Assembly: GCA_044892525.1 (NCBI GenBank) | Contig: CM097885.1 | Location: 190,216,001-190,280,000 of the forward strand | Reading direction: 5' to 3' | Origin: Schmidtea polychroa | Taxonomy: Eukaryota | Length of the DNA: 64,000 nt | Shown: positions 16,653-60,389 of the stretch, in pieces | How positions within the stretch are numbered: position 1 is the first letter of the stretch | Layout: every line of letters starts with the position of its first letter | Notes under the pieces: generated by a model | Database searches by the model: none | What the model was told of the DNA's origin: nothing | What the model saw: the letters and a program-made list of their open reading frames with translations, nothing else | Translations under genes and position numbers: made by a program

Positions 16653-16813
16653 NNNNNNNNNNNNNNNNNNNNNNNNNNNNNNNNNNNNNNNNNNNNNNNN
16701 NNNNNNNNNNNNNNNNNNNNNNNNNNNNNNNNNNNNNNNNNNNNNNNNNNNNNNNNNNNNNNNNNNNNNNNNNNNNNNNNNNNNNNNNNNNNNNNNNNNN
16801 NNNNNNNNNNNNN
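16653..16813. other. Assembly gap (N run)
   Basis: Run of N. Confidence 1.
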
Positions 16814-17906: not shown

Positions 17907-20106
17907 TATTTGATGTTTTTTATCTTTATATTTAACTAAACTTATTGCTATTATTGCGTGCTATGTACCAACACACTCTAGTCACAAAATAAAGTTTTGG
18001 GTCTAGAAATCAGTTCTAGCCCAACAAATTGAAGAATCTCTTTTGGTTCAGTTTTGGTCATTTTCTTGATGTTTGCATTTTTCGGTCGCAATAGTATAGT
18101 TTCTGCAGAAATCTCATACCATTCGTTTGATTCCCATAATCTAGGGCTATAATATAGAACTAGCGCTAAAATTGCTACTGTATTATTTATTTTTATTCTC
18201 TGAATTAATCTACTTCTATTTAAGCAAGGATGGGGAGTCGATTGGAAAACGATCGACTCCGAATCTCGACTCCTTTCAGTTTCATTAAGGCACTACTTGA
18301 TTCCGAAAATTGTTCACTGAAAAATTTGTTAACCTTTGAAATTTGATTGTCAAAATAAGTTAATTTTTTTAGATAGTTGTTCTACGTTACTCCGATAGAA
18401 GAAGCTTCAGGATATTNNNNNNNNNNNNNNNNNNNNNNNNNNNNNNNNNNNNNNNNNNNNNNNNNNNNNNNNNNNNNNNNNNNNNNNNNNNNNNNNNNNN
18501 NNNNNNNNNNNNNNNNNNNNNNNNNNNNNNNNNNNNNNNNNNNNNNNNNNNNNNNNNNNNNNNNNNNNNNNNNGTATCCAAGAAATTAGGTTAAACATAA
18601 TTAAATTAAAATAAAAATAAAACAAAACAAATTTAAGAATAAAATAGAATAGGATATAAGAAAAATAAAAAATTAGAAAATAAGAGTTAAAACAAAAAAT
18701 AAGGAAAATTGAAATAGGACAATAGAATGACAAAAAAATAACGTAAAATGTAGTAAATAATAAAGAAATTAAAGAAAATAAATAAAAAACACAATAAAAA
18801 TAAAGAAAATAGGAAAAAATAACTCAAAACCAAGAAAAATAAATTAAAGCAATAAAATTAAGCGGCACTCAATTCTGATTGGTCCGCACACATCAAAAAT
18901 TAATATATAAGGAAACACAAAAATTATAAACTTACAGTTAAACAACCAACTTTACAGGTAAGATAAATTTTAACAGTAACAGTTAAACAACCAACTTTAC
19001 AGGTAAACAGCAGCAACGTACGAGAATCAATCTAGAAACCAGGAGATATTGTCAAACAGTTAACAATCGACGTAAATTTCGAGTAACCATTTATTCGATT
19101 CGATACCTTCCGACTCAGCCTATAAATCTATACAAATTACTTGGTAAGGAATTTTCGATTTATGCTTTTATCTAAGTAATAGTAGTCATGTAATTTTATG
19201 AAATAATTATAATTTAAACTGAAAATAGTTTTTTCTTTTCGTTTGATTCCTAATGATAAATTTGCTAATTAGATGATTTAGTTATTTAATAAATGAATTA
19301 TTATGAACTTTTTATGATTGATTTTCATGCATTATTATTTAATGATTATAAATTTCCGAGAAACGTGGCGTTGAGAAACTCCATGTCATGGTATGAGGTG
19401 CCTTCGGGAGCTCAGCCGGTGGACATGGCGTTTTTCAATCACGCAGCTGATTCGGGCCGTAATGTGGGGGCTTCCTCACGGGTCCGTCGTTGAAGATGCG
19501 ACTAAAATATGTGAACAATACTGTAGAGAGATGGTAACTATCAAGCAATGGGAAGTGTAGTCATATGAGGAAAAATCTTGTTCGAGAGTTCGCACAGTGA
19601 TTGAGGGCGTCATACTATTGTCTTTGTCAAATTGAAATTGGTACTATCATCTGAAGATCTATACAGGATTTTCCGTTAAATCAGTCTGGACATCATTTGT
19701 AGCATATTATCTGCGTTCATGATTCCACTCGAAATTATTCCTGAAACCTTCAGCCTAAGGATCTTCACAACTGCTACTTTCATCATCTATATCCATCACG
19801 TGCAATCAACTTTGCTGCGTCTCTCTAAAAACCTACTTGTGGTGAATTGTGACAAACAAATAGTTCTCAAAAATAATAAACCATAAAATAATAAGGAATC
19901 TAGTCAGGAAAAATGTATTTATAAAAACAATCAAACATGTCATTCCCTTGTATATCGAATACCAAACGTTTGTGGCAACTGATGCAAAGTTGGGATGGGA
20001 GGTAACTGATCCGACAGACCCTCCATGGGAATAAAATCCGAGTCTTAGAGATGTCATAGAGGATGATGAAATATCCGCATTTCGTCGAATTGTATTTCCA
20101 GCGATA
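17907..20106 (+). repeat. Direct repeat copy 1 (of 29929-32034)
   Basis: Matches copy 2 from TATTTGATGTTTTTTATC to TATTTCCAGCGATA. Only two substitutions were noticed by eye. A 157-N gap replaces the 63-nt (TA)n-containing stretch of copy 2. Confidence 0.97.
18417..18573. other. Assembly gap (N run)
   Basis: Run of N, corresponding to 30439-30501 in the second repeat copy. Confidence 1.
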
Positions 20107-20227
20107 ATAATAAAATTAAAGATATAAATAAAGTAACTTTAATAATGGAGAAATAAGATAAAAGTAAAATAAAGTATAACGATTTAAAAGGAAAATGTTT
20201 GATGAAACAACCACTAATTAGTTATGT

Positions 20228-20740
20228 ATGACTAAAACATTTTTTTTAATAGACATGACGGAATTCGTGGACCAGATTCAACAACTAATCAACTTCATAA
20301 ACATCGAGAATAACTCCCTTAAAACGCTGACACAAAAGAGAGAAAGAATTAACATCATACTACTCCAAGCAATCGGGCAAACACCAGTCGTCCCCAACCA
20401 CATGTTATTAGCTGCAGGACTAAGTCACCCAGATGGGAAGATAAACCCTGAAACCGTGTATCAATGGTATCAAGAGAGATTGAACCACCCAGCATTAAAT
20501 CTTGATTATCAACGTATAAAAGATCCATTAAGTACCATATCAGATACAATCGAGCGAAAAATACAAGAAAAACTGACCCTACTACGAACTTGTCTTGCTT
20601 GTAAACGTCGTCCTATTCGCGTACTGTTCTTGCCGTGTGGACACCTCAGTCACTGCGAAGAATGTGTGAACAACTTAAAACGATGCACGATATGTAAGCA
20701 TGAGATAAAAGAAACTCATATGGTTTATTATGGTGAATGA
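20228..20740 (+). CDS. IAP-type C3HC4 RING protein without BIR domains (putative E3 ligase)
   Basis: C-terminal CLAC..VLFLPCGHLSHCEECVNNLKRCTIC..I (20591-20695) preceded by a coiled-coil-like IERKIQEKLTLLRT. AATAAA downstream near 20856. Confidence 0.85.
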   Translation: MTKTFFLIDMTEFVDQIQQLINFINIENNSLKTLTQKRERINIILLQAIGQTPVVPNHMLLAAGLSHPDGKINPETVYQWYQERLNHPALNLDYQRIKDPLSTISDTIERKIQEKLTLLRTCLACKRRPIRVLFLPCGHLSHCEECVNNLKRCTICKHEIKETHMVYYGE

Positions 20741-20963
20741 ATAGTTAAAGATACAGTAACATCTATGAACATTGAATTAATACGGGCGATCGAATGAGAT
20801 AAGTGTAATTGATGTGTGAAATTTTATTAAAGTTTTAATTTTTATTTTTATGACGAATAAATTTTTGTTATGAACTAAGTAATTATGGCTTTTAATTCTA
20901 TTTTTTTTTTGAATCAAACGAAAAGAAAACCGAACTAACGTGGAATTAGTCCCAATATAGGCT

Positions 20964-21918
20964 GTAAGGGTACAAACCGAGCCACCTTCGGGCGGTACGT
21001 TCTATCATACGAAAAACCAATTGGGAGGGGATAACCGATCAACCCAAGTAAGAAGCGTAGGGCGGGGTATCATCGCATATGATGAGAAGTTTCTGCGGCA
21101 TGTCTGATCACCATGCCAATGTAGAAATGGATCATCGCGATCGTCGTGCGTTTTGAGCAAGGGGGAAAGGGGACACACTCCCGAGCGGTAAAGATTAAGT
21201 CAACAAATTAAAAATAGACAGAGAAAATGATAATTCAGGGTAAAAGAGGAAAAGAGCAGTAGAAGCATGCAGAGTGGGGAATATTAAAGCCGAGCTGTTG
21301 AATAGTCCAGCCGGTCAAGGAAAATGAAAACTGAGCTGTGAAAAGTCCAGCCAGTTCGGAGATATTAAGATCGAGTTGTTGAATAGTCCAACCGATCAGA
21401 AGGAAGAAGATTGAGCTGTTGAATAGTGCCAGCCAGTCGTAAGATCGAGTTGTTGAATAGTCCAACCGATCAGAAAGAGGAAGATTGAGCTGTTGAATAG
21501 TGCCAGCCAGTCGTAAAGGCCTAGAAAAGCGAGAGATAGCAGTTGAGCTACAATGAGATAATATTTAAATTAATAGTGAAATGGAATATTAAAGCTAGCT
21601 AGAAACAAATTGAATGTAATTACGAAAATTTGAGTTTAGAGAGGAAATAAACGAGCTCGTGGAAAGGATGATAGGATTATAATGAAAAAGGAAGGGGAAG
21701 AAGGAAATGAATTAAAGAGATAATGGAAAATAAAGAATAGGTGAAATGATGATAATGAGTAAAGAGGAAAGTAACTAACTAATTAAAGGGATCCCAGTGA
21801 AGTAGAGAAACCCTACGAAATATTTTTGTTTTTGGTTAAATCGGGAAAATACATTTTTATTGGTTCCAGAGTAGAACCGAGCGAGATAATAGTAAATACG
21901 AAAAGTAAAATAGCGACA
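20964..21918 (+). mobile_element. Putative single LTR of the Gag-Env element
   Basis: Starts TGTAAGGG, contains a tandem enhancer-like array and AATAAA, and ends GCGACA directly followed by TGGCGC (weak PBS-like). It lies just upstream of the gag leader. There is no second copy in the window to confirm the ends. Confidence 0.4.
21292..21514 (+). repeat. Tandem array of GAG(C/T)TGTTGAATAGT(G)CCA(G/A)CC cores
   Basis: Six cores, including a 74-bp higher-order duplication (21367-21440 and 21441-21514). Confidence 0.9.
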
Positions 21919-22882
21919 TGGCGCAAAAGGATTAGAAAAACGAAGGGGGGTAACAAGCAGAGACCGACAACGACCTATTTATATTATAATTGATAGCGAA
22001 TAGATAATTATTACGACTTTATAGATAATTGTTACTACCCCATATAGATAATTTAAAATCGACGAAAAACGGGCTGATGGGAAATTATAACCCGCGGAAA
22101 GGATTTCACAAAAGATAGGGGAAGCACAAACAGAAACCTAAAAGGTGTCTGTGTTTGAATGTTGCAGAAAGAATGATGAAGTCGTGTAAGCAGATGCAAC
22201 ACGAGATCATTTTTTCATTTTAGATATCAAATCAAGCCAGCCAATCAAGCCAATCCAGAACCTGTACAAAAGGAATTCGAGGAAATCGACAATCGACCAA
22301 GAATAAATCCATTCAGAACCCGCACCAAGAAACCCAGCAACCGGAAGATTCCAGAACGGAGGAAGATACAGATAGCGACATCTCCAACTTCGAACGAATT
22401 ACCGATATATTCAACCTCATAGTATTAGCAGCCATCTGCCAAGGACTAGTAAATCCCCTCAGAATCTCAGTAGCAGATTCATACAGGATACTTTTCGAAG
22501 GAAACGCAATCAGATCCGAACTCTTCCGGTTCAGTAGCCGCTAATTACAAAGAAGCGTAAGAAAGGAATCACGGATAAACCCCATCTCAGATCATCAAGT
22601 AAGTCAGGCGACGTATTATTTTCAGGAGACGAATTACAACAACTCAAAAGAGGACGATCTATTAAACATCAAAGAGGAATATCACAAGGAGCAAGAAGAA
22701 CCAATCAAGTACCTATATTTGACCAAGAAAATCTCGGATACACCCCTAGTCGATCTCGAAGCAGGGAAAGTCTGTCCGATATCACTAACAGTTTAGCAAC
22801 GTCAACCGAAGAATTATCAGCCCAAAGTTTAGTCACATCGTTAGACAATTTAAAAGAAACAGACGAATCTAGAACACCAATC

Positions 22883-24847
22883 ATGACGAATGTCGTAAAA
22901 ACCGACGAGTATAAAGAGAAGTTCAGAGGAGAACCGTTCAATGGAAATGCAAACAAGTTAGCAACGTTCATAACAAATTTTGAAGTTTATATCACCGTGT
23001 GTGGATGGACACCCGAAGCAATTAGCAAAAGGATGCCGTTGTTTTTGTGCGATAGCGCATTAGAAGTATATCTAGAAGCTAAAGAGAGAGATACGAAATT
23101 AGAGAAGTGGGAAGATATCAAAACATTCTTGAAGAAAACCTTCGGAGCCAGTAAGCCAATCAACCAGGCGTGGGGCGAACTAGCAAATAGGAAACAAAGA
23201 GCGAACGAATCGATAACATTATATGCCAGTGAATTACGAAGGTTAGCGAAGAAAGCAATGAATGGGAAATTACCCGAGGAAAATCTGATCGGCTATTTCA
23301 TAGAGGGATTACGCCGAGAGGAGGTAAGAGCCTCAGTAGGTTGTCAAATGTGCAAAACGCTAGAGGAAGCCATAGACTGGGCTACAAGATGCGAGCTCCA
23401 CCTTCCAGCTCAAATGAATATTATGCAAGAGGATGGGAGGATAGCGACAGCAATAGCGAAAGCGGATAACGGAGATAACAACAATCAGGAACCGAAAATG
23501 AATCAATTTATACCAGGAGCGCATCAAATTTTTAAACCACCACAAGGACGATCAAATGGGAATAATGGTAATCGTAACAACTTGAATAATGAGAACAATT
23601 TTAATAATCGACGAAATATGAACGATAACAAGCAGTGCCGAACATGTGGTAAACCAGGACACTGGGACAGAGATTGTTATAGAAACGCAAATTGTAATCG
23701 TTGCGGACGACGTGGACATACGGAAAATAGATGCCAGTTGAGAGGTTGTTTTAACTGTGGTCAGCCAGGTCACATCTCCAGAGACTGCCGAGAAAGGGGC
23801 CAACCACAACGACCACCACAACGAAATACTAATTACATGTCGAACCCGCAACGACACAGTAACCCTAGCGAAGGAAAACAAATGAACGTTATGCAGGAAA
23901 TCTCACAAATGAAACAGATGATGCAACAAATGATGAGACCAAGACAAGAACCAGCACCACAACAAACCCAGAATATACGCATGATGAGGAGTACCGAAAA
24001 TCTCAATAGTTATGAAGTACATCAACATGTACAAGAATGGCAAAGACTACAGGCCGAGGAAGAGAGGATAAAACAAGAACGCAACCAACAACGACAAGAA
24101 CAACCATTGCGAATAAATATGATGAAGTTAGTAAAAGACATGAAAAGCCAGTACTGTTACAATTACGGGAAATACCCAAGGATAGTACCTATGACTGAAC
24201 CAGAAAAGGTAAAAGAAACAACAACGGAAACGAAAACAGAGAACTCAACCACGATCTTAAAAGGGAACCAGAGAATTAAGAAAATATTCTGGAAAAAGAT
24301 AAAAGATAAAATAGAAAAGAAACATGAAGAAACGGAAATAAGAATAAAAGAGGAAAACAACCAAAACAAGGAGCAAATCAGTCAGCTAAACCACCAAATG
24401 CTACAAGAATTGGAACCAGAAGAAACAACGATATTTGAAAGAAGGAAACTAAAGCGAGTACCACGGATGAGGAATCTGCGAATCAACATGATGAAAAGGA
24501 CAGAAGATGCGACATCGTCAGACGAAGAGGAAGACTATGTGAGCAGTTTGGGTGGAGAAATACTACAGCTAAACGAAACTAGCGAACCTCCAAAGGGGGA
24601 AATCAAAGAGGAAGAAAGCGAAAGCGAGATAACCAGTGAAAGTGAAGACGAGGATATCGAAATAAAGTTGAGAAAAGCGAGGGAGGAAACGATAAAACAA
24701 GTAGCTGAAATACTCCCGGTGGTAGTGAGAAACCAAGAGTTCATCGATGTAATACCATTCAGGCGATTCGTACAAAAAGTGATGACATTGGAAAGAAACG
24801 AGAAAGATTTAATACCAAGCGAAGAAAAGTTGATAATAAAAAAGTAA
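22883..24847 (+). CDS. Ty3/Gypsy-type Gag (capsid plus three CCHC knuckles) with a long Q/E/K-rich extension
   Basis: Retrotransposon capsid pattern (FNGN..F..NFE..W..L..F..L..RKQ..ES...Y..EL..L....FIEGL). Knuckles CRTCGKPGHWDRDC, CNRCGRRGHTENRC and CFNCGQPGHISRDC. The frame is open back to 22538. Confidence 0.95.
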   Translation: MTNVVKTDEYKEKFRGEPFNGNANKLATFITNFEVYITVCGWTPEAISKRMPLFLCDSALEVYLEAKERDTKLEKWEDIKTFLKKTFGASKPINQAWGELANRKQRANESITLYASELRRLAKKAMNGKLPEENLIGYFIEGLRREEVRASVGCQMCKTLEEAIDWATRCELHLPAQMNIMQEDGRIATAIAKADNGDNNNQEPKMNQFIPGAHQIFKPPQGRSNGNNGNRNNLNNENNFNNRRNMNDNKQCRTCGKPGHWDRDCYRNANCNRCGRRGHTENRCQLRGCFNCGQPGHISRDCRERGQPQRPPQRNTNYMSNPQRHSNPSEGKQMNVMQEISQMKQMMQQMMRPRQEPAPQQTQNIRMMRSTENLNSYEVHQHVQEWQRLQAEEERIKQERNQQRQEQPLRINMMKLVKDMKSQYCYNYGKYPRIVPMTEPEKVKETTTETKTENSTTILKGNQRIKKIFWKKIKDKIEKKHEETEIRIKEENNQNKEQISQLNHQMLQELEPEETTIFERRKLKRVPRMRNLRINMMKRTEDATSSDEEEDYVSSLGGEILQLNETSEPPKGEIKEEESESEITSESEDEDIEIKLRKAREETIKQVAEILPVVVRNQEFIDVIPFRRFVQKVMTLERNEKDLIPSEEKLIIKK

Positions 24848-26374
24848 ATGGAAAAAATGAAGCAGGTCGATACCACTCGATATGTAATAAAAATCGGAAC
24901 GAGTAGAGGACTTGAAAGAATGTGGATTAAAAATACAGTCACTGACGAACTTTTCGATTGGATACGAGAACATTTGGGAAGTTCGAGAAAGAAAGAATAT
25001 CTGTATCAATACCAAGGAGAACAGATCAAACCAGATATGCACTTAGTGGATGCACTAATATGGCCAGGAGAAACGCAAATACTGAAGTTGCACAAAGAAA
25101 AACAACCAGCTAACCTGTACGATTGGGCTAAAGATGCCAAGGCGGAATATGATTTTAATATCAAATTGAAATTAGAACAAATAAAGCAATGTACTCTGAG
25201 ACGAAACCTGGACAAGCTGATCAAACAAATTCAAGAACAAGTGGAAGATAACTGGGATTTACTCATCACCAGACGAGCCCCAGCCATGTACGAACTAATG
25301 AGCCGGTTGCAAGATACAGAATTGCTCCGAATGAGTGATTGGAGAACCATAAATTTGATCCACAAATATGGAAGGTTAAAGGAAACCCAGCCGCAGAGGT
25401 TGGAAATAACCATATGGTTACCGAACGAAGAGAAACGACGAATAAAAATGAGCAATCAGAGTACAGTGGATGATTTGGTATCAAAGATAAACCAAGAGAT
25501 AACGGAAAAGGTACGTAGCGAAAGTAGTGACGGTATGGTGGATGATGTAGTCATGATGTACGACAAAATAATATTACGAGCGGAAGACGACACCTCGTTG
25601 AGCGAAATGGGTATGTGGGACGATCATCAGATAATCAGGATAGTACCAATGGATGAATTTCGAACAAGAGATGTAACGTATCAAAAAGAAATACGAGACC
25701 GGATGAAAGCGTTATATCAAAAATCTACAGAAATAATTGAAATTCACCAACGATGGTTAAAAGAAAAGGAACTACAAGGAAAAATCACGAAACTAAGCAC
25801 CAGATCCTGCAGACGAACCCCATGGGAAAGAGTGTGGAATACAGAAAATAAGGAATGGGAAATCCGGAAAGGAATCTTCGTAGAAACAGACATTGGTGAG
25901 ACAGAAAGTGAATCGGAGGAAGAAGAAAAGGAACCTCCAGAATATGAAGAGGAAGCAAGGGGACAGACATCAGATGACGAAAGCGAGACGGACGTCACGT
26001 CAGAAAGCGAAAATGAAGCAAGACATATTCATGCAATGCGGAAAAAGGAACGTGAATATGCCGATATGGACGGCGAGGAAGCGACAGAAGCAAGAGAACG
26101 AGAAGAGAAAGAAAGATATAAACAATTAGGCGATATTTTAGCAATAGGAGCGAAAAATCAAAAACGCCAGGTAGTAGCGCTGGCTAATATCATCTTAAAG
26201 ACATCAGAGAACATCCACAATCTGAGAGGAATGGCAAAGGCAATAGAGGAATACCGGCAATATAATGAATATTCAGAACAGTTAGGAAATGGAGAAATCA
26301 GGAATGGGCACAAGACACCCAGGAGAGGTATCACATCCGAATCAAGTATCCGGACAAGAGCATTGAAGAACTAG
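24848..26374 (+). CDS. ORF2: two ubiquitin-like domains and an acidic region, in frame with Gag after a single TAA
   Basis: UBL-like segments RYVIKIG..QGEQIKPDMHL..ILKL (24878-25096) and RLEITIWLPNEEKRRIKMSNQSTVDDL..DDTSLSEMGM..IIRIV (25397-25648). Confidence 0.7.
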   Translation: MEKMKQVDTTRYVIKIGTSRGLERMWIKNTVTDELFDWIREHLGSSRKKEYLYQYQGEQIKPDMHLVDALIWPGETQILKLHKEKQPANLYDWAKDAKAEYDFNIKLKLEQIKQCTLRRNLDKLIKQIQEQVEDNWDLLITRRAPAMYELMSRLQDTELLRMSDWRTINLIHKYGRLKETQPQRLEITIWLPNEEKRRIKMSNQSTVDDLVSKINQEITEKVRSESSDGMVDDVVMMYDKIILRAEDDTSLSEMGMWDDHQIIRIVPMDEFRTRDVTYQKEIRDRMKALYQKSTEIIEIHQRWLKEKELQGKITKLSTRSCRRTPWERVWNTENKEWEIRKGIFVETDIGETESESEEEEKEPPEYEEEARGQTSDDESETDVTSESENEARHIHAMRKKEREYADMDGEEATEAREREEKERYKQLGDILAIGAKNQKRQVVALANIILKTSENIHNLRGMAKAIEEYRQYNEYSEQLGNGEIRNGHKTPRRGITSESSIRTRALKN

Positions 26375-29300
26375 AAGTGCATCCAACAACGAAAATTAGG
26401 GAATTAAAAAAGAAATTAGCATATGAAACCCCATTCCATCTGCAACTATTCGGAAAATCACTAGACGATAATGTAGACGTCGGAATAACACCCATGAGAT
26501 TAGAAGAGACTAATGTGTTAACAATGGCGGAAACGTTGGGAAAACCGTTGAAAAGGAAAAGCAAAATTAATAAACCAACAAAAGGTAGTTTGAGTACTCC
26601 AATTCCAAACAAAGCCCCAAGTAAATCTAATGAAACTGAAGAAGTTGAAGAGATTATCCTAGAAGATAGTTACGATGAACCAGGAGAAAGATCACCACTA
26701 TTAGTGAGATGGCCAACAGGAGCCGAAATATGGACCAACAACCAACCATCAACAAGTTATCAACAACCAACGAAACTGAACATCAAGGAAATCATCGACA
26801 ATACTACGGAAACCGAAACGGATGAACAATTCCAGAAGCAAAGAGAACCAACAAAAATAACACCGGAAGGTCAAACCGATAAAATAATAGATGAGTGGAA
26901 TGAGTGGCTGAGAAATAACGATAGTTCATTACCCAGAACGGATAACGAAAGAAATCCGCAATATGAAAATACCAGAGAAGCTGGAACGATGATGGAAAAA
27001 CGGGCAAAAGGAAGACCTAAGAAACAAGGAGAGAAATCTGAGTTCAAAACCAAGGAACAAGTAAAACAAGAACAAGGACAAGTTCGATTGGAAAAGTTAG
27101 ATAAAATAGTATGGGATCTAAAGGAAGCCCAACCAACGATCGGAAGAGGAGAAAAATGGATACGAGAATTGATCAAAGATATGTTAATAATAACAAATCC
27201 ACAACTTAGACGCTTGTGGCAACGGAAAGTAGCCAGTGTAGAAGCTAGACAATTATGGCACATCGTATCGGGGATAATCCCAAAGCTAATCAAAGAAAAA
27301 ACGAAAACTACCAAAACGGATTGGGATGAAACCAAGAGAGTGATTGAACAGCTCACGACAAATGCAAATGATGACGAACATCATCTAGTGGTAATCACTT
27401 ATTTGATGTATAATTTGATGGGACTAGCTGCGAGAAAAATACCAAATAAACAGTTTGCAAATCACGTGGAAATGACTGCTTCAGTCATTGAAAACACTAT
27501 TGAACCACATATTATTCGTGCCGGAGGATGGAAAAGACTTATACAAGCGCCACGAAAAAATGAGCAAGGAAGGTCGATGCAAGTTAGATTGAAAAAGCTG
27601 TTAAATGAAATAGAATGGGAACTACCGGTGAAAGACCCAGCAAGCAGAAAAGCATCAATAAATTCGTTAATGATGACTATGATGATATGGATGTTGTGCA
27701 CAAGTGGAGCAACGGGTTTTACCATCTACGATTGTGATAATATGATAATGAGAGATAAATACTCATTGAGAGATATAGAAGAATGCAGACAAGCATCACC
27801 CAACAAATTGGACATAGTAAGAACAAAAGTTACCTACCATGTATATCAAGAATCAGATTTCATCAGAACGCAAGCAAGGGAATGCGTAGTATCAAAAAAG
27901 GTACTCGCATATTACTGTGGACAATATTCGTATTCAACTCTTATACTACCCGGTCTGGATAAAGAAATCGTATCAATACAAAGAGAGGACTGTAAAGAGC
28001 TATTTAGAATCGGAGCGCTAAAAATGCATAACGGAGTGACGATACACGGACAAACTGGAATGATTAAAACCGAAAGTGTTTACGTATCCGGAAAAGTAAA
28101 GTCATCAGAAGGGTCATGTAACGGAGGTACGTATACGATCCGAGGCGAGGTAATATCGGGAGTAGTAGTAATCGAGTCCTATACGGTTGAATTAAAAGAA
28201 TATGAAGCGCAATTTGACGCAAATAATTACCAAATGAAGACCAACCCGGCATGTAGGGCTACAGAAAACGTATGCAGGACAGGAGTGTCAACTATAATCT
28301 ATGAAGCTAACACGCAAAAATGCCGACTCCAACTGTTAAAAAGTGCTTTATTCAATGAAGTAAAAGGAGAAATTTATGAGAACGAGAATGACGAGGATGG
28401 AAACGAAAGAGTGAGAATGCGAAATGGAAAACCAATGCCACCATCCCCCAGAGAAAAAAGACTCTCGACGCAGAAAACACCAACAGCATTAATAACCGAC
28501 GACCCAGATCTAGGTATGAGATTCATTAAAGAGAAAGAAACCACCAAATGCGACAGTATAGTATATAAAACCAATTACGCTGGTATCTATATGTCAAGAC
28601 AAATAATCGATAGAGCAGTGGGAAAGATAGCAGCGGAGGACGTGAAATTATACTTATATGCGAATAATAAAATGGATTTTTTATTTCATCGTGGACAAAC
28701 GACCCTACAAAAAGTATATTACGATCTGATACAAAACGATTGTTCATTGAATAAAGAAATACTGAAAATAAAGCTAGCTATTGCGATAACGCACCCGGAT
28801 AACACGATGCCATCACTCCCATTACCAGACGGACATTTTGGTAGAATGGTAGGAGAAGTGATGTACACATACCAGTGTACCAAGACGTATGCACGAATGC
28901 CAGAAAAATCCATACTACCCGAAAAGAGATGTGCAAATGAATTAGAAATCCGCTATAAAGGACAAAATCGATTCGTCCAACCCGTCACTAGAATTATGAA
29001 TCCAGTGGGTTTCTACCCAAATCTCTTTAACTGTTCTAATGCATACGGACCATTGTATGAAAGACCCGATGGAAAATGGATGATGTTACCGGGAAAAACC
29101 ATATCCGAGGAGCCCAAGAAATTTGGATTGATAGAACTCGCCACAGAGCTGGATTTCAAACCTATAGACGTGTCAAACGGTGGTATGTATTCCCCAGAAG
29201 ATTTAGAAACAGCTCGGCTTAACGTATTATTCCCAGCAAGGCGAGAATCTATTTTGTCCAATATGGTAACAATAACTGGGGGAACGAATTACCAATCAGG

Positions 29301-29961
29301 CCCAAACTATGAACTACTGCTGTCACCAGACCATTTCCAACAAGCAACCTCAAATATGATGAAAGCAATGTGGGGAAGATTCTTAGTTTTTGGACAAATG
29401 ATGGCCGGAATATTGGGGATCATACTCATAATTCAGATCGTCAGAGTAATACTAACACAAATGTTAGCCTGTTTTGATATATACAAGCGGGAAAAGAAAG
29501 TTAACTGGAAAATGATAGTAGGCTTTCTACCATTTTTAGCTAAAACCATGGTATTACATGGTCACTCAAAAGACATTCATCGGATAAAGCGATTGATCAA
29601 AATACTAACAAAGATTAAAGGAACCGACGAAGAAGTAGGCAGACGATTCCGGAAAGTAATGTACGATGAAGCAACAAGACGACAATTGAAAAAGAATAAG
29701 CCAAAATTTTTGGACCGATTCAGAAGTCAATCATCTAACAGCGATAGTGACGACGATAATAACGGGAACGATAAATGTCTATATCCAAACAGAAACCCAA
29801 ACAAAAAACCGATGGAAACAGCACCGTATTGGGAAAAGGAAAAGACAAACACCTGGATCGCCAACGGAAGCTATATACCACCGGATATCGTGGGACCACA
29901 AGCCGCTTTGACCATGACACAGAATATGTATTTGATGTTTTTTATCTTTATATTTAACTAA
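26269..29961 (+). CDS. ORF3: ubiquitin-like domain, Bcl-2-like domain, signal peptide and chuvirus-like class III fusion glycoprotein
   Basis: The frame is open from 26269. UBL at 26326-26526. BH1/BH2-like helices ending IEPHIIRAGGWKRLIQ (about 27148-27552). Hydrophobic signal ending GATG|FTIYDC (27718). Cys-rich ectodomain, REKR site, and TM segment WGRFLVFGQMMAGILGIILII from 29371. The last residues come from the flanking repeat. Confidence 0.85.
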   Translation: MFRTVRKWRNQEWAQDTQERYHIRIKYPDKSIEELEVHPTTKIRELKKKLAYETPFHLQLFGKSLDDNVDVGITPMRLEETNVLTMAETLGKPLKRKSKINKPTKGSLSTPIPNKAPSKSNETEEVEEIILEDSYDEPGERSPLLVRWPTGAEIWTNNQPSTSYQQPTKLNIKEIIDNTTETETDEQFQKQREPTKITPEGQTDKIIDEWNEWLRNNDSSLPRTDNERNPQYENTREAGTMMEKRAKGRPKKQGEKSEFKTKEQVKQEQGQVRLEKLDKIVWDLKEAQPTIGRGEKWIRELIKDMLIITNPQLRRLWQRKVASVEARQLWHIVSGIIPKLIKEKTKTTKTDWDETKRVIEQLTTNANDDEHHLVVITYLMYNLMGLAARKIPNKQFANHVEMTASVIENTIEPHIIRAGGWKRLIQAPRKNEQGRSMQVRLKKLLNEIEWELPVKDPASRKASINSLMMTMMIWMLCTSGATGFTIYDCDNMIMRDKYSLRDIEECRQASPNKLDIVRTKVTYHVYQESDFIRTQARECVVSKKVLAYYCGQYSYSTLILPGLDKEIVSIQREDCKELFRIGALKMHNGVTIHGQTGMIKTESVYVSGKVKSSEGSCNGGTYTIRGEVISGVVVIESYTVELKEYEAQFDANNYQMKTNPACRATENVCRTGVSTIIYEANTQKCRLQLLKSALFNEVKGEIYENENDEDGNERVRMRNGKPMPPSPREKRLSTQKTPTALITDDPDLGMRFIKEKETTKCDSIVYKTNYAGIYMSRQIIDRAVGKIAAEDVKLYLYANNKMDFLFHRGQTTLQKVYYDLIQNDCSLNKEILKIKLAIAITHPDNTMPSLPLPDGHFGRMVGEVMYTYQCTKTYARMPEKSILPEKRCANELEIRYKGQNRFVQPVTRIMNPVGFYPNLFNCSNAYGPLYERPDGKWMMLPGKTISEEPKKFGLIELATELDFKPIDVSNGGMYSPEDLETARLNVLFPARRESILSNMVTITGGTNYQSGPNYELLLSPDHFQQATSNMMKAMWGRFLVFGQMMAGILGIILIIQIVRVILTQMLACFDIYKREKKVNWKMIVGFLPFLAKTMVLHGHSKDIHRIKRLIKILTKIKGTDEEVGRRFRKVMYDEATRRQLKKNKPKFLDRFRSQSSNSDSDDDNNGNDKCLYPNRNPNKKPMETAPYWEKEKTNTWIANGSYIPPDIVGPQAALTMTQNMYLMFFIFIFN

Positions 29962-32034
29962 ACTTATTGCTATTATTGCGTGCTATGTACCAACACACTC
30001 TAGTCACAAAATAAAGTTTTGGGTCTAGAAATCAGTTCTAGCCCAACAAATTGAAGAATCTCTTTTGGTTCAGTTTTGGTCATTTTCTTGATGTTTGCAT
30101 TTTTCGGTCGCAATAGTATAGTTTCTGCAGAAATCTCATACCATTCGTTTGATTCCCATAATCTAGGGCTATAATATAGAACTAGCGCTAAAATTGCTAC
30201 TGTATTATTTATTTTTATTCTCTGAATTAATCTACTTCTATTTAAGCAAGGATAGGGAGTCGATTGGAAAACGATCGACTCCGAATCTCGACTCCTTTCA
30301 GTTTCATTAAGGCACTACTTGATTCCGAAAATTGTTCACTGAAAAATTTGTTAACCTTTGAAATTTGATTGTCAAAATAAGTTAATTTTTTTAGATAGTT
30401 GTTCTACGTTACGCCGATAGAAGAAGCTTCAGGATATTCAAATGTATTCATCTTATAAATAAATATATATATATATATATATTGTTGGGCTGAGTCGAAG
30501 GGTATCCAAGAAATTAGGTTAAACATAATTAAATTAAAATAAAAATAAAACAAAACAAATTTAAGAATAAAATAGAATAGGATATAAGAAAAATAAAAAA
30601 TTAGAAAATAAGAGTTAAAACAAAAAATAAGGAAAATTGAAATAGGACAATAGAATGACAAAAAAATAACGTAAAATGTAGTAAATAATAAAGAAATTAA
30701 AGAAAATAAATAAAAAACACAATAAAAATAAAGAAAATAGGAAAAAATAACTCAAAACCAAGAAAAATAAATTAAAGCAATAAAATTAAGCGGCACTCAA
30801 TTCTGATTGGTCCGCACACATCAAAAATTAATATATAAGGAAACACAAAAATTATAAACTTACAGTTAAACAACCAACTTTACAGGTAAGATAAATTTTA
30901 ACAGTAACAGTTAAACAACCAACTTTACAGGTAAACAGCAGCAACGTACGAGAATCAATCTAGAAACCAGGAGATATTGTCAAACAGTTAACAATCGACG
31001 TAAATTTCGAGTAACCATTTATTCGATTCGATACCTTCCGACTCAGCCTATAAATCTATACAAATTACTTGGTAAGGAATTTTCGATTTATGCTTTTATC
31101 TAAGTAATAGTAGTCATGTAATTTTATGAAATAATTATAATTTAAACTGAAAATAGTTTTTTCTTTTCGTTTGATTCCTAATGATAAATTTGCTAATTAG
31201 ATGATTTAGTTATTTAATAAATGAATTATTATGAACTTTTTATGATTGATTTTCATGCATTATTATTTAATGATTATAAATTTCCGAGAAACGTGGCGTT
31301 GAGAAACTCCATGTCATGGTATGAGGTGCCTTCGGGAGCTCAGCCGGTGGACATGGCGTTTTTCAATCACGCAGCTGATTCGGGCCGTAATGTGGGGGCT
31401 TCCTCACGGGTCCGTCGTTGAAGATGCGACTAAAATATGTGAACAATACTGTAGAGAGATGGTAACTATCAAGCAATGGGAAGTGTAGTCATATGAGGAA
31501 AAATCTTGTTCGAGAGTTCGCACAGTGATTGAGGGCGTCATACTATTGTCTTTGTCAAATTGAAATTGGTACTATCATCTGAAGATCTATACAGGATTTT
31601 CCGTTAAATCAGTCTGGACATCATTTGTAGCATATTATCTGCGTTCATGATTCCACTCGAAATTATTCCTGAAACCTTCAGCCTAAGGATCTTCACAACT
31701 GCTACTTTCATCATCTATATCCATCACGTGCAATCAACTTTGCTGCGTCTCTCTAAAAACCTACTTGTGGTGAATTGTGACAAACAAATAGTTCTCAAAA
31801 ATAATAAACCATAAAATAATAAGGAATCTAGTCAGGAAAAATGTATTTATAAAAACAATCAAACATGTCATTCCCTTGTATATCGAATACCAAACGTTTG
31901 TGGCAACTGATGCAAAGTTGGGATGGGAGGTAACTGATCCGACAGACCCTCCATGGGAATAAAATCCGAGTCTTAGAGATGTCATAGAGGATGATGAAAT
32001 ATCCGCATTTCGTCGAATTGTATTTCCAGCGATA
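29929..32034 (+). repeat. Direct repeat copy 2 (of 17907-20106)
   Basis: Near-identical to copy 1, 2106 bp. Confidence 0.97.
30483..31052 (+). mobile_element. About 570-bp element bounded by 19-bp inverted repeats (solo LTR or MITE), inserted next to (TA)n; duplicated at about 18574-19124
   Basis: TGTTGGGCTGAGTCGAAGGGTATC at the left and GATACCTTCCGACTCAGCC at the right. Internal ATTGG box, TATATAA, and a duplicated ACAGTTAAACAACCAACTTTACAGGTAA. Confidence 0.6.
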
Positions 32035-32315
32035 GTTAATGAATTTCCAACTCGATATAGACAGTGGGCATGTTGATGATGATAAAATCCATGAGGGGAG
32101 TAGAAATTATAGCTTGAATAGTTGACCAGTTTGTCTACGAAACGAATTACATCCAGTAATAGCGGTACGCACCATCTGCCTATGCAAAATTTCCACGAGA
32201 GATAGAAATTCAACACGGTGTAATATAACATCTGATGATTCATGCCTGCTGCCAAATAGGATAAGAGTCTCACGAAGTGAGTACCCGCACACATGTGTAA
32301 ATGCACACATTGCAA
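31761..32315 (-). CDS. Orphan ORF (184 aa), His/Tyr-rich with a hydrophobic C-terminus
   Basis: Open frame that crosses the right end of repeat copy 2 and is truncated in copy 1. No family recognised. Confidence 0.35.
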   Translation of the reverse strand: MQCVHLHMCAGTHFVRLLSYLAAGMNHQMLYYTVLNFYLSWKFCIGRWCVPLLLDVIRFVDKLVNYSSYNFYSPHGFYHHQHAHCLYRVGNSLTIAGNTIRRNADISSSSMTSLRLGFYSHGGSVGSVTSHPNFASVATNVWYSIYKGMTCLIVFINTFFLTRFLIILWFIIFENYLFVTIHHK

Positions 32316-33133
32316 GTTCTAATAGCCAAAGTCCACATGCTGGTGCTCACCAATAATAACACGGATATCACTAGCCATAATTCTACGAGTCTATCTTCCA
32401 GGTGATACGTTCCTTGAGATCGCATCGTCATCTAACCCGATAGTAGATAATTCACCGCGAACGGCTAACTTGAGAAAAGTCCACCGGGTGTGTCAGATAA
32501 AAATCTCGGCTATTTACCGAAAGCACTAGACATGAGTGATGATAACACGAGTCACCAACAACTCAATAATTAATTTTAAAATAGTAACTAAATGTGAGAT
32601 TTGAAAACAAAATTATAATAAATTATAGACAATATAATCGAAAGCCTAAATAAAATACAAACAAAATGCAATTCAATTAATCCAAGTCTATTACTGGGAC
32701 TGCAAAAATTTAGTATTTTTACTTAATGATGAATTAAAACCAACTTATCTAATTATCTATAAAATCATTATAATGATTAGCTAAATTTTCACTTAGTAAT
32801 TATTTAGTTCGGGTTGAATTTTCAATGCTATTTACCCTCTTCAAGAAACATTTCCGTCATCAATAATCCCTCTTAAACATGTAATTTTCATTTTCTTTAA
32901 TAATGATGGACAATCTTCGTTAAGTAAAGCCTAATGTTTTCAGTTGATTTTCTAGTGGATAAATACCCAGAGTACGCATAGGTTGATGGCATCGGAAATC
33001 CCTCTTGATAAAAATCCGTTTTCCTTTTCCTGTAAAAATGTCTTATATTGATTAACGAATGGTGGCGAAAAATGATGATTTTCTAAATTTGATCTATCCC
33101 ATTTAGTGTTATTATTCTTCTTAGCTAGCAGAC

Positions 33134-33905
33134 ATGTTACCCACTGCAAAGACCGTCCTCAGACCCTGTTTTTCTTGTTCCGACAAGAACGCGATAATCA
33201 AGGACCTGCAGACCCAGATCGGACGGTACAAAAAGAAGATAGACGAGTTAGAGGGGACATGGTTTAGTCCCGCCCAGATGAAAGAGACCCAAAAGAAATT
33301 ACACCGAAGTGAACATTGCCGGGACGCTCTAATCTCCGAGAGTCGTGCCCAAAGAAGTTTGATCAAGGAGCAGTCCGAGGCGCTGCATAAAGTGTACATC
33401 CAGGCCGCGGCAACTAGAAAGAGAGTGAAAATTCCCATCGGTGAAGCCGACAATCTCTTTCCGGCCCACCATGATACTTCTGCCAAATCGTCGCTCCCTT
33501 CGAAAAAACCTTGCCGGCCGTGCGTAGAAACACAACTCTCGCCAGGGCAACTAGAGGTGGTTTTTGTTGGAAATAGTCGGGTACTGCCTAACGTCGCCTC
33601 TACATCGGCGGTAGCCCCAAACAATTCATCGACCAACAAGCCAAAGCGTCGGCAGCTATCAAGGGCTGAACGGAAAAGGAAACAGCGTGAGCGAATAGCT
33701 GCGAAGCAGCCCAAGCAACTGCCGGACCTCGAGAGTAATGTCAATAACGTCCCTGCTGTAATTGACCTAACAACAAGGCCACTGGGGCGGATCATATCTG
33801 CCACTGGGGCGGATCATATCTGCCGCTGGGGTGACGTGGGAGGAAAACGCCTCCGAATTCTTCGATTTGGATGAGTTACTCGCCGACTCCGAGTGGGAAA
33901 AATGA
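33134..33905 (+). CDS. Orphan nuclear-like protein (CxxC, coiled coil, basic NLS-like stretch, VIDLT, acidic tail), frameshifted by a 22-bp duplication
   Basis: GC-rich 246-codon ORF. Removing one CCACTGGGGCGGATCATATCTG copy (33779-33800 / 33801-33822) gives the ending AAGVTWEENASEFFDLDELLADSEWEK* at 33905. Confidence 0.55.
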
Positions 33906-34438
33906 GGATTTTCCCGCGAGATGACCTCAGCCGTCGGAGAGTCCTGAATCAACTAATATCGTGTCTTGTCCTTGTGTTTTCTCTTATTCTAATTATGATG
34001 TATAAATTACGACGCGCCTGTATTGCAATGTTTGAAATAAACAATTTTTGTCTGTATACGGTTTTGTTTTTCGTTCATAAGGGATTTAAAATTGAGTGGT
34101 AAATAGCATTGAGGTTTTGAGATTCGGAGAATATTGTTCAATTTGCAATCCAAACCAAGGGTATGGCGACAGGGTGACAGAATGTGTAGACGTAAGTCCT
34201 TCTATCGGCTGTCAGGGTTAGGAAGTCGGGGTCTCAGTGAGGAGTAGTCCGAAGGAGGTGGCTCACCTGCTCACTGGCACCTCGCCATCATAGCACAGTT
34301 CCAACGTGAAGCAATTCACGGGTGCTATGTTGGATTATAGATTATGCACGGGCCCTGCTCGGGGTGACACAGTAATGACAGGTATAATCGTAACGGGCGT
34401 TCATCCTCTAGGCTAGAAAGTTGAACTAAGGGTGGTCA

Positions 34439-34569
34439 NNNNNNNNNNNNNNNNNNNNNNNNNNNNNNNNNNNNNNNNNNNNNNNNNNNNNNNNNNNNNN
34501 NNNNNNNNNNNNNNNNNNNNNNNNNNNNNNNNNNNNNNNNNNNNNNNNNNNNNNNNNNNNNNNNNNNNN
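34439..34569. other. Assembly gap (N run)
   Basis: Run of N following a GC-rich, LTR-like stretch (about 34140-34438). Confidence 1.
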
Positions 34570-35439
34570 AGTTACGAACTTCCAAATGCAGCTGAAGAAA
34601 TTTTAAAACCGGAAAGATTGTCATCCTTTGAAATGAGGCTGGCACTCGTAAATATTATTTTATCAGCTCAAAAGTGTTAATATTGTTTTCCGATAAATAT
34701 TAATGAATTTACGAATTTCCAAATGCAGCTGAAAAAATTTAATATTAGAAGAAATTGTCCCATTTTGAAATAAGGCTGTCACTCCCTCATTTTTTTGCGA
34801 AAAATGTATTGCATCGTTTCGCTAGAGAAACATACCAGCAATTTCAAAATGTTATAATTATTAGTATACGATAAATATATCCGGAGATATGGATTTTAGA
34901 ATATTTTATTTTAGCATTACAATAGACATAAAAAAGTTCGGGAATCGTAGAAATATTACCGATTTCGATTCCTGAAAAATATTCGATTCCCGTTTCCGAT
35001 TCAGTCGCTTTCCTACCATTTCGTATTGCATATTCATAAATCATAATACATATTGGAAAATAAAACAATTTTCTTAATAAAGAAATGATGATTTTTATTT
35101 TTTTGTATTTTAAATAGTATAATAGTTGTATTGAATGCCAACGAATAACTATAAACAAAAACTTTCCTCTTATTAATAATTATAGAACCTAAATTTTAAC
35201 TATAGTACTATCATAGACAGTTATTAATAATAGAGTAACATATAATACTTTCCCTCTTCTAAAAAAAGTAAAGAACTTGCAAAATTTTATTATTATAATT
35301 TCGTAATAAAACTCTAAACAAGTATAACAATATTTAATTTTAATAGTATCATACTTTGCAATTTGCATGTATATATAATGAAATTTGAAAAAAATTTAGA
35401 TAAGGGAATTTGTTCTTAAAAAAAGAATGGCTTCGGTTA

Positions 35440-37590
35440 TGTCCTCTTTGAAGTTAGCTCGTAGGTGTGACTTGATCAATCTCAGAGCGGAAAATAAGCG
35501 TTCCACACTGACTTGAGTAGGTGGAAAGGCAGTAACAATACTGGCAGCATTTTGTACTATTTCAGGATATTTTTACATCAAGTTTTGGTTTACGATTAAT
35601 TTAAATTTTTAAATTTTGTCAATTATTATATCCTCGTTGTCTTCAGCGTCTTTGTCTTGCATTAAACAAATGCGTTTGGATTTCTCTTCATGATCAAGAT
35701 ATTTTTCAAAATTCATTTCTATATCAGAGTTGGATGTGGAGGATTCACTAAGGAGAGAACCAGGGCCACTTTCAGATTATCAATTACCCTTAGAATCACC
35801 TTCCGTTAACGATTTGATTCGGACAGCTACATCACACAGAGCTGATTTCCCTCTTTCTAGCTGGTTGTCAGTTAAGAGTACCCTGTGCATAGGATCTACA
35901 TAAATTGCAGCCAGCAACACAGCATTGTTCATTATATCTTCCTCTCTACGTTTCATAGAATTTCTTATACCATCTGAAAAAATGCCATCAATTTGAGAGC
36001 ATTTGTAGCTAAGGTTTTTCCATTCTTTGTAGAATGATCCTGGTGTCAATTCGGCAGCTTGAATTTTTTTTGTGACTAAATACGGGATTTTAAGTAATTC
36101 TTCAAGTTTTAAGCCTCTTCCCACTGCATATCAGTCAGAGTAATGTTTGCGTTTGCCATATCGATTAATATTGGCTTTAATTCAAGAAGATGCTGAATCA
36201 TCTCATAGGTTCTTCCCCAACGTGTAGCTTGATCTAGAATTGGCCCCTTATCTGATCGTCGCCTTAAAATTGAATCAAGTTTTGGTGTTCTGGCCGCAAC
36301 TGCTATGTTGCGCAGCCTTTCTATTACATTTGATGCATTTCTTTCTTTTAAGCCATCCCGAATTGCAAGTTGCAATGTATGGACAACGCATGTGGGGGAT
36401 ATTTGAGAAGCCAACAAAATCAGTGACTGCAGAGTTAACAGTTTCATCAACATTAGAGGACTCTTCCTCTGAAAGTTCTTTACTACTATCTTCAAAAAGA
36501 TCTTCCGCTTCCCTAACATTACGACTAAGTTTCTGCACTGCACTGGTCATATTTGAAGCATTGTCTGTAATTATTGACAAAACTTGTTGCATTGAGATAT
36601 CATATTCTTATAAAATTTTCTTAAATAGGTTTTTAATGTACTCGCTAGAATGTTGAGCTTCTGTGTCCCTCACTGCAAGAGTTCGTATTGCCAGATTTCT
36701 TTCATCATCAAAGAACTGGACATTTATTGCAATGTAATTAATTTTGTCAATTATTATATCCTCGTTGTCTGCAGCGCGTTGGGTCTCACAGACCCAGACG
36801 ATCTTTTTTTGCGTAAAAAAAATTTTTGTGGCGTAGCATCAATTCAGAACATTCTGTAGCTGATTCATTTCAGCTTTACTTTAATTTCGACCAAAATCAT
36901 TAATACATTATTAAATCATTATAATTTTTAAATTATTTTTAAATTTTTATAATAATCTTTACTATTTTTGTAATTTTTTTAGCACGCGCTCTGCAGGGTT
37001 AATTCGCAGCCTAGTGCAAGCATCCATCTTTAGAAATAAAAGTTTATCTTTCAGAATTTTGTTTAATCATGTTTTCTGATTTTCAGCTTCTTCGATAATT
37101 AAATTCCGAATATCATGTCTTTCTAAAGACACTCCAAGTTTTAATGCCATTTCCCCTATTAATCCATGGAAAGCTTGCGAGGAAAATAATAAAAGTGCGA
37201 CCCCATTTTTTAAAACCAAGTCTATAAGGTGTTTCCTGAATATTTCTACGATCATCGAAACAGTAATTTTTTGACTGTGAAAATATTCTGTAAGAGAGCT
37301 TTGTTTATTTCTTGAAGTCAAGCTTCCAGCTTCCTCACATTTCTTATCCTCTGCTTCATGCTCCTGTATTGACTTGTGAATATTGGGATGTTTTCTTTGT
37401 AAGTGGCGCTTTTAATTTGAAGCTCTACTTGGAGATTTACTGCCACATTTCTCAGCCACAGTGTAAGCACTAATGTTCGCATTACACAGCTTGTCGTCGT
37501 GTTCTAGTTGACAAATAAAGTGACTTTTATTTTCACTCAATTTAAAAAATTGAAAAACTGCTGATTTCCTAGCACTTCTATGACTCATGG
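35440..37590 (-). pseudogene. Ac-type hAT transposase (BED finger, DDE, hATC), degenerate
   Basis: BED finger (FICQ..LC..KRHLQRKH), IITDNASNM, CVVHTLQLAI, ATRWGRTY, AAIYVDP and C-terminal PPTQVSVERLFS. Confidence 0.9.
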
Positions 37591-37953
37591 CTAATTTTTA
37601 ATTTACTAAATAAATTCTAAATTAAAAAATATACAATATGTAATTAATACAAGTACTAAAACTAACGCACTTAACAAAATAAACGGTTAATATCTGTATT
37701 TGTACGTCAATTAATAAAAAAATCAAATTTAGATTAAAAATCAATTAATTTTAATAGAAGCAGTAAATTATTTGACTTATTATATATTTACTGCTTTTAT
37801 TAAAATTTTTTATTTTATTTTTTTTCGAAGTGGAAAAGGAGTCGAAGAGTCGATCGATTTTTATCGACTCCGACTCCGATTTCGACTTCTGGCAAAACCT
37901 TCGACTCATCGACTTTTCGACTCCGACTCCGACTCCCCATCCCTGTATTTAAC

Positions 37954-42340: not shown

Positions 42341-42439
42341 CTGATTGGTTTAAGTTTACCTTCTGCCGTTCTGTGATTAAGACTTGCACTAATTCCAATG
42401 TCCGATGCATCCGTACATACAATGAATATGCGTTGCGAA

Positions 42440-60260: not shown

Positions 60261-60389
60261 TTTTCTTAGTGACTCAAGATTCTGATGAAGTTTTGGATTA
60301 AGATTTCTTGTTTGGGAACAAACAATATCATTTTCGTCATCTTCAATGAAATCATTAAACCTTTTTTTATTTTTGTTACTTCGACTTAT

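Follow-up and report, generated by a model that had tools for sequence, protein, structure and literature searches.

The window analysed here is a 64,000-nucleotide stretch of the genome of Schmidtea polychroa (GenBank assembly GCA_044892525.1, contig CM097885.1, positions 190,216,001 to 190,280,000 of the forward strand), and all coordinates below are counted from its first letter. It contains a copy of a Ty3/Gypsy-type Gag element in which a gene for an envelope glycoprotein (Env) follows gag. Its polyprotein part is spread over three open frames on the plus strand, between two copies of a 2.1-kb direct repeat, and the third of these (26269..29961), which differs in frame from the preceding two, is open for 1230 codons. 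Its first ATG is at position 26494 and begins an open reading frame (ORF) of 1155 amino acids. This third frame encompasses a Bcl-2-like domain, a probable signal sequence, Env, a transmembrane segment and a tail.

The class III (gB-like, Monjiviricetes-type) ectodomain occupies 27718..29364 of the plus strand and has 14 conserved cysteines and one N-glycan sequon (amino acid 846). All nine motifs quoted in the original prediction, which had called this protein a chuvirus-like class III glycoprotein, are located in a single plus-strand frame. They are GATGFTIYDC (27706-27735), YSLRDIEEC (27760), ECVV (27880), YYCGQYSY (27910), EDCKELFRIG (27985), GSCNGGTY (28111), REKR (28450-28461, exactly where it had been placed), WGRFLVFG (29371) and AGILGI (29404). 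From residue F409 to the junction with the downstream repeat at 29928 there are 737 codons. Thus, the claim of about 740 intact codons is right for the Env frame, but the copy as a whole is broken and lacks pol.

The Env matches the Pfam family of Monjiviricetes fusion glycoproteins, PF24664, with an E value of 1e-69 and 235 bits, wherein the cut-off is 27 bits. An AlphaFold (AF2) model built on a 123-row alignment has a mean predicted local distance difference test (pLDDT) score of 88.6. When this model is compared with the PDB by Foldseek, every listed row is a herpesvirus gB, and the best is gB of pseudorabies virus (PRV; E 1.4e-13, TM-score about 0.43). In BFVD, the G protein of a chu-like virus comes first (E 3.4e-40, TM-scores of 0.56-0.65, 17-20% identity). 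Sequence identity to herpesvirus gB is about 11%, and phmmer with Env finds no PDB sequence at E values up to 10, while a profile reaches herpesvirus gB at E 0.005 only. All 14 family cysteines are kept in the ectodomain, as expected from the original remark on Chuviridae/Monjiviricetes spacing. Both groups of relatives have the same scaffold, and among the stand-alone glycoproteins each position is retained in 37-40 of 39-40 rows. The PF24664 score, the fold common to gB and chuvirus G, and the 14 cysteines therefore make the assignment as a Monjiviricetes/chuvirus-type class III fusion glycoprotein solid; the best matches are neither non-viral proteins nor members of another fusogen class.

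The probable signal sequence is located at 27658..27717 (+), and its cleavage before F409 is suggested by the corresponding position in relatives, wherein a hydrophobic stretch precedes the xYDC motif. A signal ending in GATG before this phenylalanine had been predicted and is found at that place, but it is internal. There is no start codon at 27658, and the putative signal lies approximately 390 residues inside the 1155-residue ORF. It is also short, rich in methionine and only weakly hydrophobic, staying below 1.3 in a 19-residue Kyte-Doolittle scan. The REKR motif is located in a flexible, low-confidence loop of the Env model. As a sequence of the furin type it is indeed present, but R-x-K/R-R occurs in this loop in none of 15 retroelement relatives and none of 40 other relatives. 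It is therefore a possible furin site that is unconserved and is not a feature of the family.

The membrane-proximal region and transmembrane anchor (29365..29484, +) are clear, with a hydropathy of 2.53 for the anchor compared to 1.8-2.5 in all 11 relatives in which the anchor motif could be located. A second hydrophobic patch (29500..29556, +), which had been described together with the anchor, is weak (1.31 in the window, 1.0-1.6 in relatives), and the topology expected for the polyprotein makes it more likely to be amphipathic than a second transmembrane segment. Beyond it is a cytosolic linker (29557..29928, +) that in relatives leads into the protease. Among 13 relatives examined, eight have both an LYP-like motif and the protease motif D(T/S)G, and in these the latter is located 31-57 residues past the former. 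In the window, the junction into the repeat is reached 50 residues after CLYP, before any D(T/S)G.

Upstream, the Gag part of the polyprotein (22883..24847, +) includes a capsid region (23036-23317) and three CCHC knuckles (23636-23788), and it ends at an in-frame stop codon (24845-24847). It matches PF03732 (E 4e-10) and PF00098 (E 2e-10), and its best PDB match is the capsid of Drosophila Arc2 (dArc2; E 8e-8), in agreement with the Ty3/Gypsy-type Gag that had been proposed. Upstream of the Gag ATG, at 22226-22882 (+) and past a possible splice acceptor, there are coding-like fragments in shifting frames. The corresponding region of relative P0151 is a long low-complexity N-terminus. The middle region (24848..26374, +) continues in the Gag frame past the stop, and near 25385-25675 it probably includes a ubiquitin/SUMO-like domain.

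P0151, which was brought up by a search with Gag, is a single ORF that covers gag and the middle region and reaches into the first part of the Bcl-2-like domain. It is 40% identical to the window frames over 1240 amino acids and 42% over 273 amino acids, and it aligns continuously through both breaks. Judged by this alignment, what the window splits over three frames is a single polyprotein in the family; the splits are the stop codon at 24845-24847 and a change of frame. The frame change falls within the overlap 26269-26374. Programmed frameshifting at this site is unsupported, since there is no slippery heptamer inside the overlap; the only one found, at 26406, lies past the upstream stop.

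The Bcl-2-like helical domain (27136..27567, +) has a BH2-like GGW motif. NWGR, the hallmark motif of BH1, is absent. PF00452 matches the window domain at E 0.026 and its counterpart in relative P0005 at E 0.00096. All chains at ranks 1-15 of a VIA search with the domain model have the Bcl-2 fold (Z 7.4-6.3), and the top match has a root-mean-square deviation of 4.4 over 123 residues. The rows listed by Foldseek likewise all belong to the Bcl-2 family (best E 0.028). The ESM Atlas gave no usable match for this part, and phmmer against the PDB returned only two unrelated rows at E of about 1. Thus, this domain likely shares the Bcl-2 fold as modelled, and binding of BH3 is not implied since NWGR is absent.

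An accessory ORF at 20228..20740 (+) encodes a C-terminal C3HC4 RING finger of the inhibitor of apoptosis (IAP) type (PF13920, E 8e-12). The best PDB sequence matches of this RING are the RINGs of cIAP2, cIAP1, livin and XIAP (E 5e-11 to 2e-6). Position and strand suggest that this ORF belongs to the element. Between it and gag there is an untranslated stretch with tandem 74/40-bp repeats (21281..21516, +).

A phmmer search with Env against 1.84 billion representative sequences gave 972 matches, and the best of these are long chains. Pfam scans covered 17 of the top 20 matches. In 11 of these the same chain carries an aspartic protease downstream of the glycoprotein, five have reverse transcriptase (RT) plus RNase H, and four have integrase, with pol in the Gypsy order protease (PR)-RT-RNase H (RH)-integrase (IN). 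Gag or CCHC domains precede the glycoprotein in four of the 17. The domain order of the window copy is Gag, the possible ubiquitin-like domain, the Bcl-2-like domain, signal, class III ectodomain, transmembrane anchor and linker, and it is continued by PR-RT-RH-IN in the relatives. A word-indexed homologue search was less productive, with none of 7413 candidates recovered by Env alone and one of 7998 with a profile.

Several relatives have further unusual features. In P0001 and P0006 the polyprotein runs 400-600 residues past the integrase, and hydrophobic segments flank a soluble part, which suggests a second membrane protein; P0015 has a long tail as well. There are at least two tandem aspartic protease domains after Env in P0001-P0004, P0008 and P0014, with four stretches in P0004. 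P0130 combines three immunoglobulin domains with a Monjiviricetes-type glycoprotein in one chain, which may be a fusion of gene models.

With 15 top polyprotein-type rows the window Env shares 26-45% identity, and with 40 lower-ranking, mostly stand-alone glycoproteins, some of which may be insect retroelement Envs, it shares 17.7-22.5%. In an unrooted tree (quick LG+G4, 56 of the 123 rows that could be cropped, stand-alone rows thinned to every third) it nests among the polyprotein Envs (16 rows, SH-aLRT 99). P0071, a BEL/Pao-type row with DUF5641 and G, is in the other clade of the tree. Constraining the window Env to group with 15 stand-alone glycoproteins was rejected by the approximately unbiased (AU) test (p-AU 0.008; 31 rows, after removing six long-branch or intermediate rows). 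These trees are read here for kinship, and neither a donor nor a direction of transfer is claimed from them.

The copy breaks off where pol would begin. There are no pol matches in 16814-22400, in 22.9-30 kb or in 29601-38400, and a search for protease and RT next to the element with five relative polyproteins gave one chance-level row on each side. The pol fragments that the window does contain have minus-strand orientation and are at least 8 kb away from the element. Gypsy RNase H/integrase fragments are found at 38552-39143, 41281-42444 and 57671-57990 (-), and one of them is 56% identical to the P0001 integrase. They lie within or close to a large inverted duplication (39701-41310 / 58108-60677) that has a 680-bp core of 98% identity. 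The copy is thus defective and unable to move by itself, because of the stop after gag, the frame change and the end at the protease start; that Env is nevertheless open is probably due to a recent date of the breakage.

The direct repeats extend over 17907..20106 (left, +) and 29929..32034 (right, +). The left copy includes a 157-N assembly gap (18417-18573), and the Env frame runs on into the right copy, where its final 10 codons and its stop are located. Over 2043 aligned bases the two copies show two differences, both in the 510 bp left of the gap and none in the 1533 bp right of it. The repeats start and end with TAT...ATA rather than TG...CA, and the right copy begins before the coding frame has ended, at the point where the protease would start. 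GTT is found before the left copy and after the right copy (chance of about 0.02 per fixed register), and this 3-bp duplication at the outer ends is the only one, as no target-site duplication (TSD) of 4-6 bp was found. No polypurine tract (PPT) was found before the right copy, and no primer-binding site (PBS) with up to two mismatches to 11 tRNA 3' ends was found in 16814-22900 (best, 3 mismatches in 12). G+C content is smooth at the outer junctions (0.27/0.26 between left flank and left copy, 0.39/0.40 between right copy and right flank) and jumps at both inner junctions (0.42/0.17 and 0.47/0.31). These observations are explained by long terminal repeats (LTRs) no better than by a misassembly or by a duplication of host DNA on either side of an inserted piece.

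Two other possibilities for the ends were rejected. The TGTAAGGG...GGGGTAACA stretch (approximately 20962-21954) was considered as an alternative LTR, but it occurs only once in the window and is not flanked by a target duplication. Troyka, which has a 3-bp TSD, requires CG...CG ends according to the available text of PMC12440569 and was therefore discarded. Within the right repeat, a 19-bp imperfect inverted repeat (30488-30506 / 31030-31048) surrounds a 570-bp A-rich unit with CCAAT- and TATA-like motifs and a preceding (TA)n tract. The same unit recurs in the left repeat, partly in the gap, and it is perhaps a solo LTR or a miniature inverted-repeat transposable element (MITE) nested in the repeat. 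A GC-richer, decayed coding-like stretch (31290-32560, +) crosses the right end of the repeat.

Our preferred interpretation, to which we assign a probability of roughly 0.8, is that the window Env belongs to a planarian-type Ty3/Gypsy element, present here as a defective copy, that has GAG-ENV-POL order and a domain order like that of the Burro elements. Several points weigh against this interpretation or parts of it. There is no RT in the copy, so membership in Metaviridae rests on Gag and on the relatives. The scaffold has N gaps and looks like a short-read product, and the breaks could therefore be assembly errors. The ubiquitin/SUMO-like domain is a lead only: the Pfam rows of the middle region (PI3K_rbd, UCH_UBL1, UN_NPL4) are weak at E 0.05-0.4, and the PF11976/PF00240 clusters of the ESM Atlas score 0.85-0.86, under the 0.9 line. 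The Bcl-2-like model is a weak one (pLDDT 58, from five sequences), its Z of 7.4 is below the VIA caution line, and the BH2-like GGW occurs in only four of the 14 relatives that have enough upstream sequence. Lastly, the available text of PMC6431247 speaks of 'gypsy Env' for the Burro env and does not assign that of Burro-1 to class III.

The same gaps leave room for another view, in which misjoined short-read contigs of an intact multicopy element account for the truncated end, the frame breaks or the duplicated repeat. There are runs of N at 16653-16813, 18417-18573 and 34439-34569, 1533 bp of the repeat show zero differences, and AATATG is found directly before both left junctions. Against this, the contig from 18574 to 34438 is gap-free and includes both copies of the 1533-bp part, the repeat copies do differ at two sites, and the available text of PMC6431247 describes a planarian genome that contains decayed Burro pieces interrupted by stops and frameshifts. 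We consider such an artefact unlikely. If the repeats are taken at face value, they might instead be non-canonical LTRs of a recently mobile non-autonomous element that relies on an intact relative for packaging and copying in trans and perhaps supplies Env. The two differences in 2043 bases, the GTT at both outer ends that resembles a 3-bp target duplication, and an Env frame that runs 1230 codons without a stop and keeps all 14 cysteines are what such an element would present, and a gap within one copy is expected from collapsed LTRs. This alternative is rather improbable given the lack of TG...CA ends, of a PBS for any of the 11 tRNA 3' ends tried and of a PPT, the position of the repeat start within the coding frame at the protease, the G+C pattern that looks as if host DNA was duplicated around an inserted piece, and the stop and frame change that split Gag from Env. 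There is only a slim chance that the unit is a recently mobile, pol-less satellite of planarian GAG-ENV-POL elements with TAT...ATA repeats and a 3-bp duplication. Such a satellite would be a minimal enveloped particle-and-survival cassette in which Gag and a Bcl-2/class III Env protein are made as separate products beside the IAP-type RING gene; its Pol would come from elsewhere in trans, and it could pass from cell to cell.

Two explanations would separate the glycoprotein from the life of a retroelement. The original prediction implied a recent capture of a chuvirus gene, and in its most direct form the locus would be an endogenous chuvirus glycoprotein fossil newly acquired beside a Gag element. 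The top named viral structure matches are indeed chu-like G proteins (E 3e-40, TM-scores of 0.56-0.65) and the cysteine scaffold is common to stand-alone glycoproteins. However, this idea is largely refuted and has next to no probability left, because identity is 17-20% to the top named viral G and 17.7-22.5% to the 40 stand-alone proteins compared to 26-45% to retroelement Envs, grouping with the stand-alone proteins is rejected by the AU test (p 0.008), the relatives have Env in frame with both Gag-side and Pol-side domains, and a scan of 13 window ORFs shows neither a nucleoprotein nor an L polymerase. A host-domesticated fusogen or anti-apoptotic gene, selected in the manner of a syncytin after loss of pol, is very unlikely as well. 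In its favour, the Bcl-2/Env frame is unbroken though pol is gone and has its own ATG at 26494, and the available text of PMC7642597 proposes domestication of solo chuvirus-type glycoproteins in mosquitoes. Yet Gag and the middle region are also near-intact, leaving selection no time to show, the surroundings are dense in transposons, and the C-terminus arises by accident, from reading on into the repeat.

Elements of this kind are known. According to the available parts of Chary and Hayashi (eLife 2026, PMC13524379), Ty3/gypsy elements with a gB-type Env are spread across animals and have GAG-ENV-POL order in Platyhelminthes, Nematoda and Bryozoa, and chuvirus-like glycoproteins adjoin gypsy pol in 114 arthropod elements. 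The supplement includes nine flatworm elements, and the 12-mer TVELKEYEAQFD from the window Env occurs once in the available Env table of supplement 2, in Smed_errantivirus_5. Over domains I-II, 102 of 183 ungapped residues of this Env are identical to the window Env (approximately 56%, counted by eye), compared to 41.8% over the same residues for the best full-length relative in our library. The group C1a errantiviruses of Platyhelminthes resemble the window copy in having Env before pol and a gB-like class III ectodomain. The window linker after the transmembrane anchor matches the pre-protease linker of relatives, and gag precedes env as in GAG-ENV-POL errantiviruses. In C1a, as described there, the furin site is not always conserved, which is also the case in the window family. 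The published errantiviruses were, according to the same source, selected for intact GAG, ENV and POL, whereas the window copy lacks pol and has two breaks. The term 'Bcl-2' does not occur in the main text of that paper.

The second known relative is Burro (GYPSM1), a giant planarian Gypsy element described by Arkhipova and Yushenova (2019, PMC6431247). In its available text, Burro is a single ORF with the order Gag (three CCHC)...Ubi2/SUMO-BCL2-env-PR; its env is said to match mononegavirus glycoproteins and to have an HHpred match called 'gypsy Env', and the authors also note IAP-related cargo and decayed copies that carry stops and frameshifts. The window element shares the three-CCHC Gag, and the Ubi/SUMO-like and BCL2-like domains before env are weakly matched. 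Pfam scans of the four element ORFs found none of the Burro-type BIR, MATH/TRAF, ankyrin or dUTPase cargo. The window remnant is approximately 10 kb long compared to 25-30 kb for Burro, with its IAP-type RING ORF upstream; this comparison is by the published description only. Thus, the novelty implied by the original prediction does not hold, as a gB-type Env between gag and pol is already published in PMC13524379 and the Burro order dates from 2019. Its suggestion of a non-arthropod host is probably right; likeness to these published elements likewise makes a planarian flatworm the probable host. It overlooked the breakage, the loss of pol and the Bcl-2-like, ubiquitin-like and IAP-type RING cargo.

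More distant comparisons agree in part. The nematode endogenous retroviruses (NERV; Sacco et al. 2022, cited in PMC13524379) are described there as having ENV and POL in flipped order and an RNA-virus-like glycoprotein on a metavirus. By eye, the 14 Nematoda_c2 rows and one Nematoda_C1 row among the available Env sequences show no obvious motif in common with the window Env, and the ten bryozoan rows of PMC13524379 are likewise unlike it. Anakin, which had been cited as a Copia element, is a Pao element with a chuvirus glycoprotein in mosquitoes (available text of PMC7642597). It shares with the window element the glycoprotein family and its presence on an LTR retroelement, but it is of the BEL/Pao type, whereas the window Gag is PF03732/Arc-like and no Pao domains were found. 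The G of Chuviridae and the gB of herpesviruses have the profile, fold and 14-cysteine scaffold in common with the window Env, which differs from both in being set in a retroelement polyprotein with a putative internal signal. A 2023 survey noted no clear capture by Gypsy or Copia in arthropods (available text of PMC10084718), and this is superseded by PMC13524379. No functional test of a planarian gB-type Env was found in the literature searched, which did not cover subscription journals.

We infer the topology, processing, fusion and anti-apoptotic action of an intact family member from these parts as follows. A single polyprotein would be made, wherein Gag (the capsid and three CCHC knuckles), the ubiquitin-like domain and the Bcl-2-like domain remain in the cytosol. 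The internal signal would then thread the class III ectodomain into the endoplasmic reticulum until the transmembrane anchor stops transfer. Protease, RT, RNase H and integrase would remain cytosolic, so the second hydrophobic patch should not cross the membrane. Signal peptidase and the protease of the element may free the parts, and by analogy with gB and chuvirus G, an Env trimer would fuse the membranes of the particle and the target cell. Perhaps the products with the Bcl-2-like domain and the IAP-type RING act on host-cell death or ubiquitin pathways. Production of Env from the window copy would need a transcript that uses the ATG at 26494 or a later methionine codon.

The remainder of the window includes pieces of other transposons. 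A frameshifted fragment of a non-LTR retrotransposon RT is found at 2-923 (-; RVT_1, E 0.015), and hAT-like transposase pieces are located at 4217-5545 (-) and 54611-55147 (+), with matches to DUF4371 (E 7e-5) and to the hAT dimerisation domain (E 5e-12). There are Tc1/mariner elements (DDE_3) at 61690-63104 and 46170-46760, and the former is flanked by inverted arrays of 21-bp units (61694-61852 and 62937-63095). An isolated GC-rich ORF of 246 amino acids (33134-33874, +) matches no Pfam family above cut-off; near 6255-6332 it has a weak inverted counterpart. Neither tRNA genes nor Rfam matches were found in the window.

The window copy is one more example, and a defective one, of a group that has been described, and it reveals no new phenomenon. 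Its contribution is that it ties the gB-type planarian errantiviruses, for which the available main text makes no mention of Bcl-2, to the domain order of Burro. The family poses the questions of whether a gB-type Env fused in frame between Gag and Pol can make particles infectious in the absence of gH/gL-like helpers, and whether the element persists better in stem cells thanks to its anti-death cargo. A broken copy is a poor test case for these questions, and the significance of this locus would be greater if the pol-less unit were multicopy and expressed.

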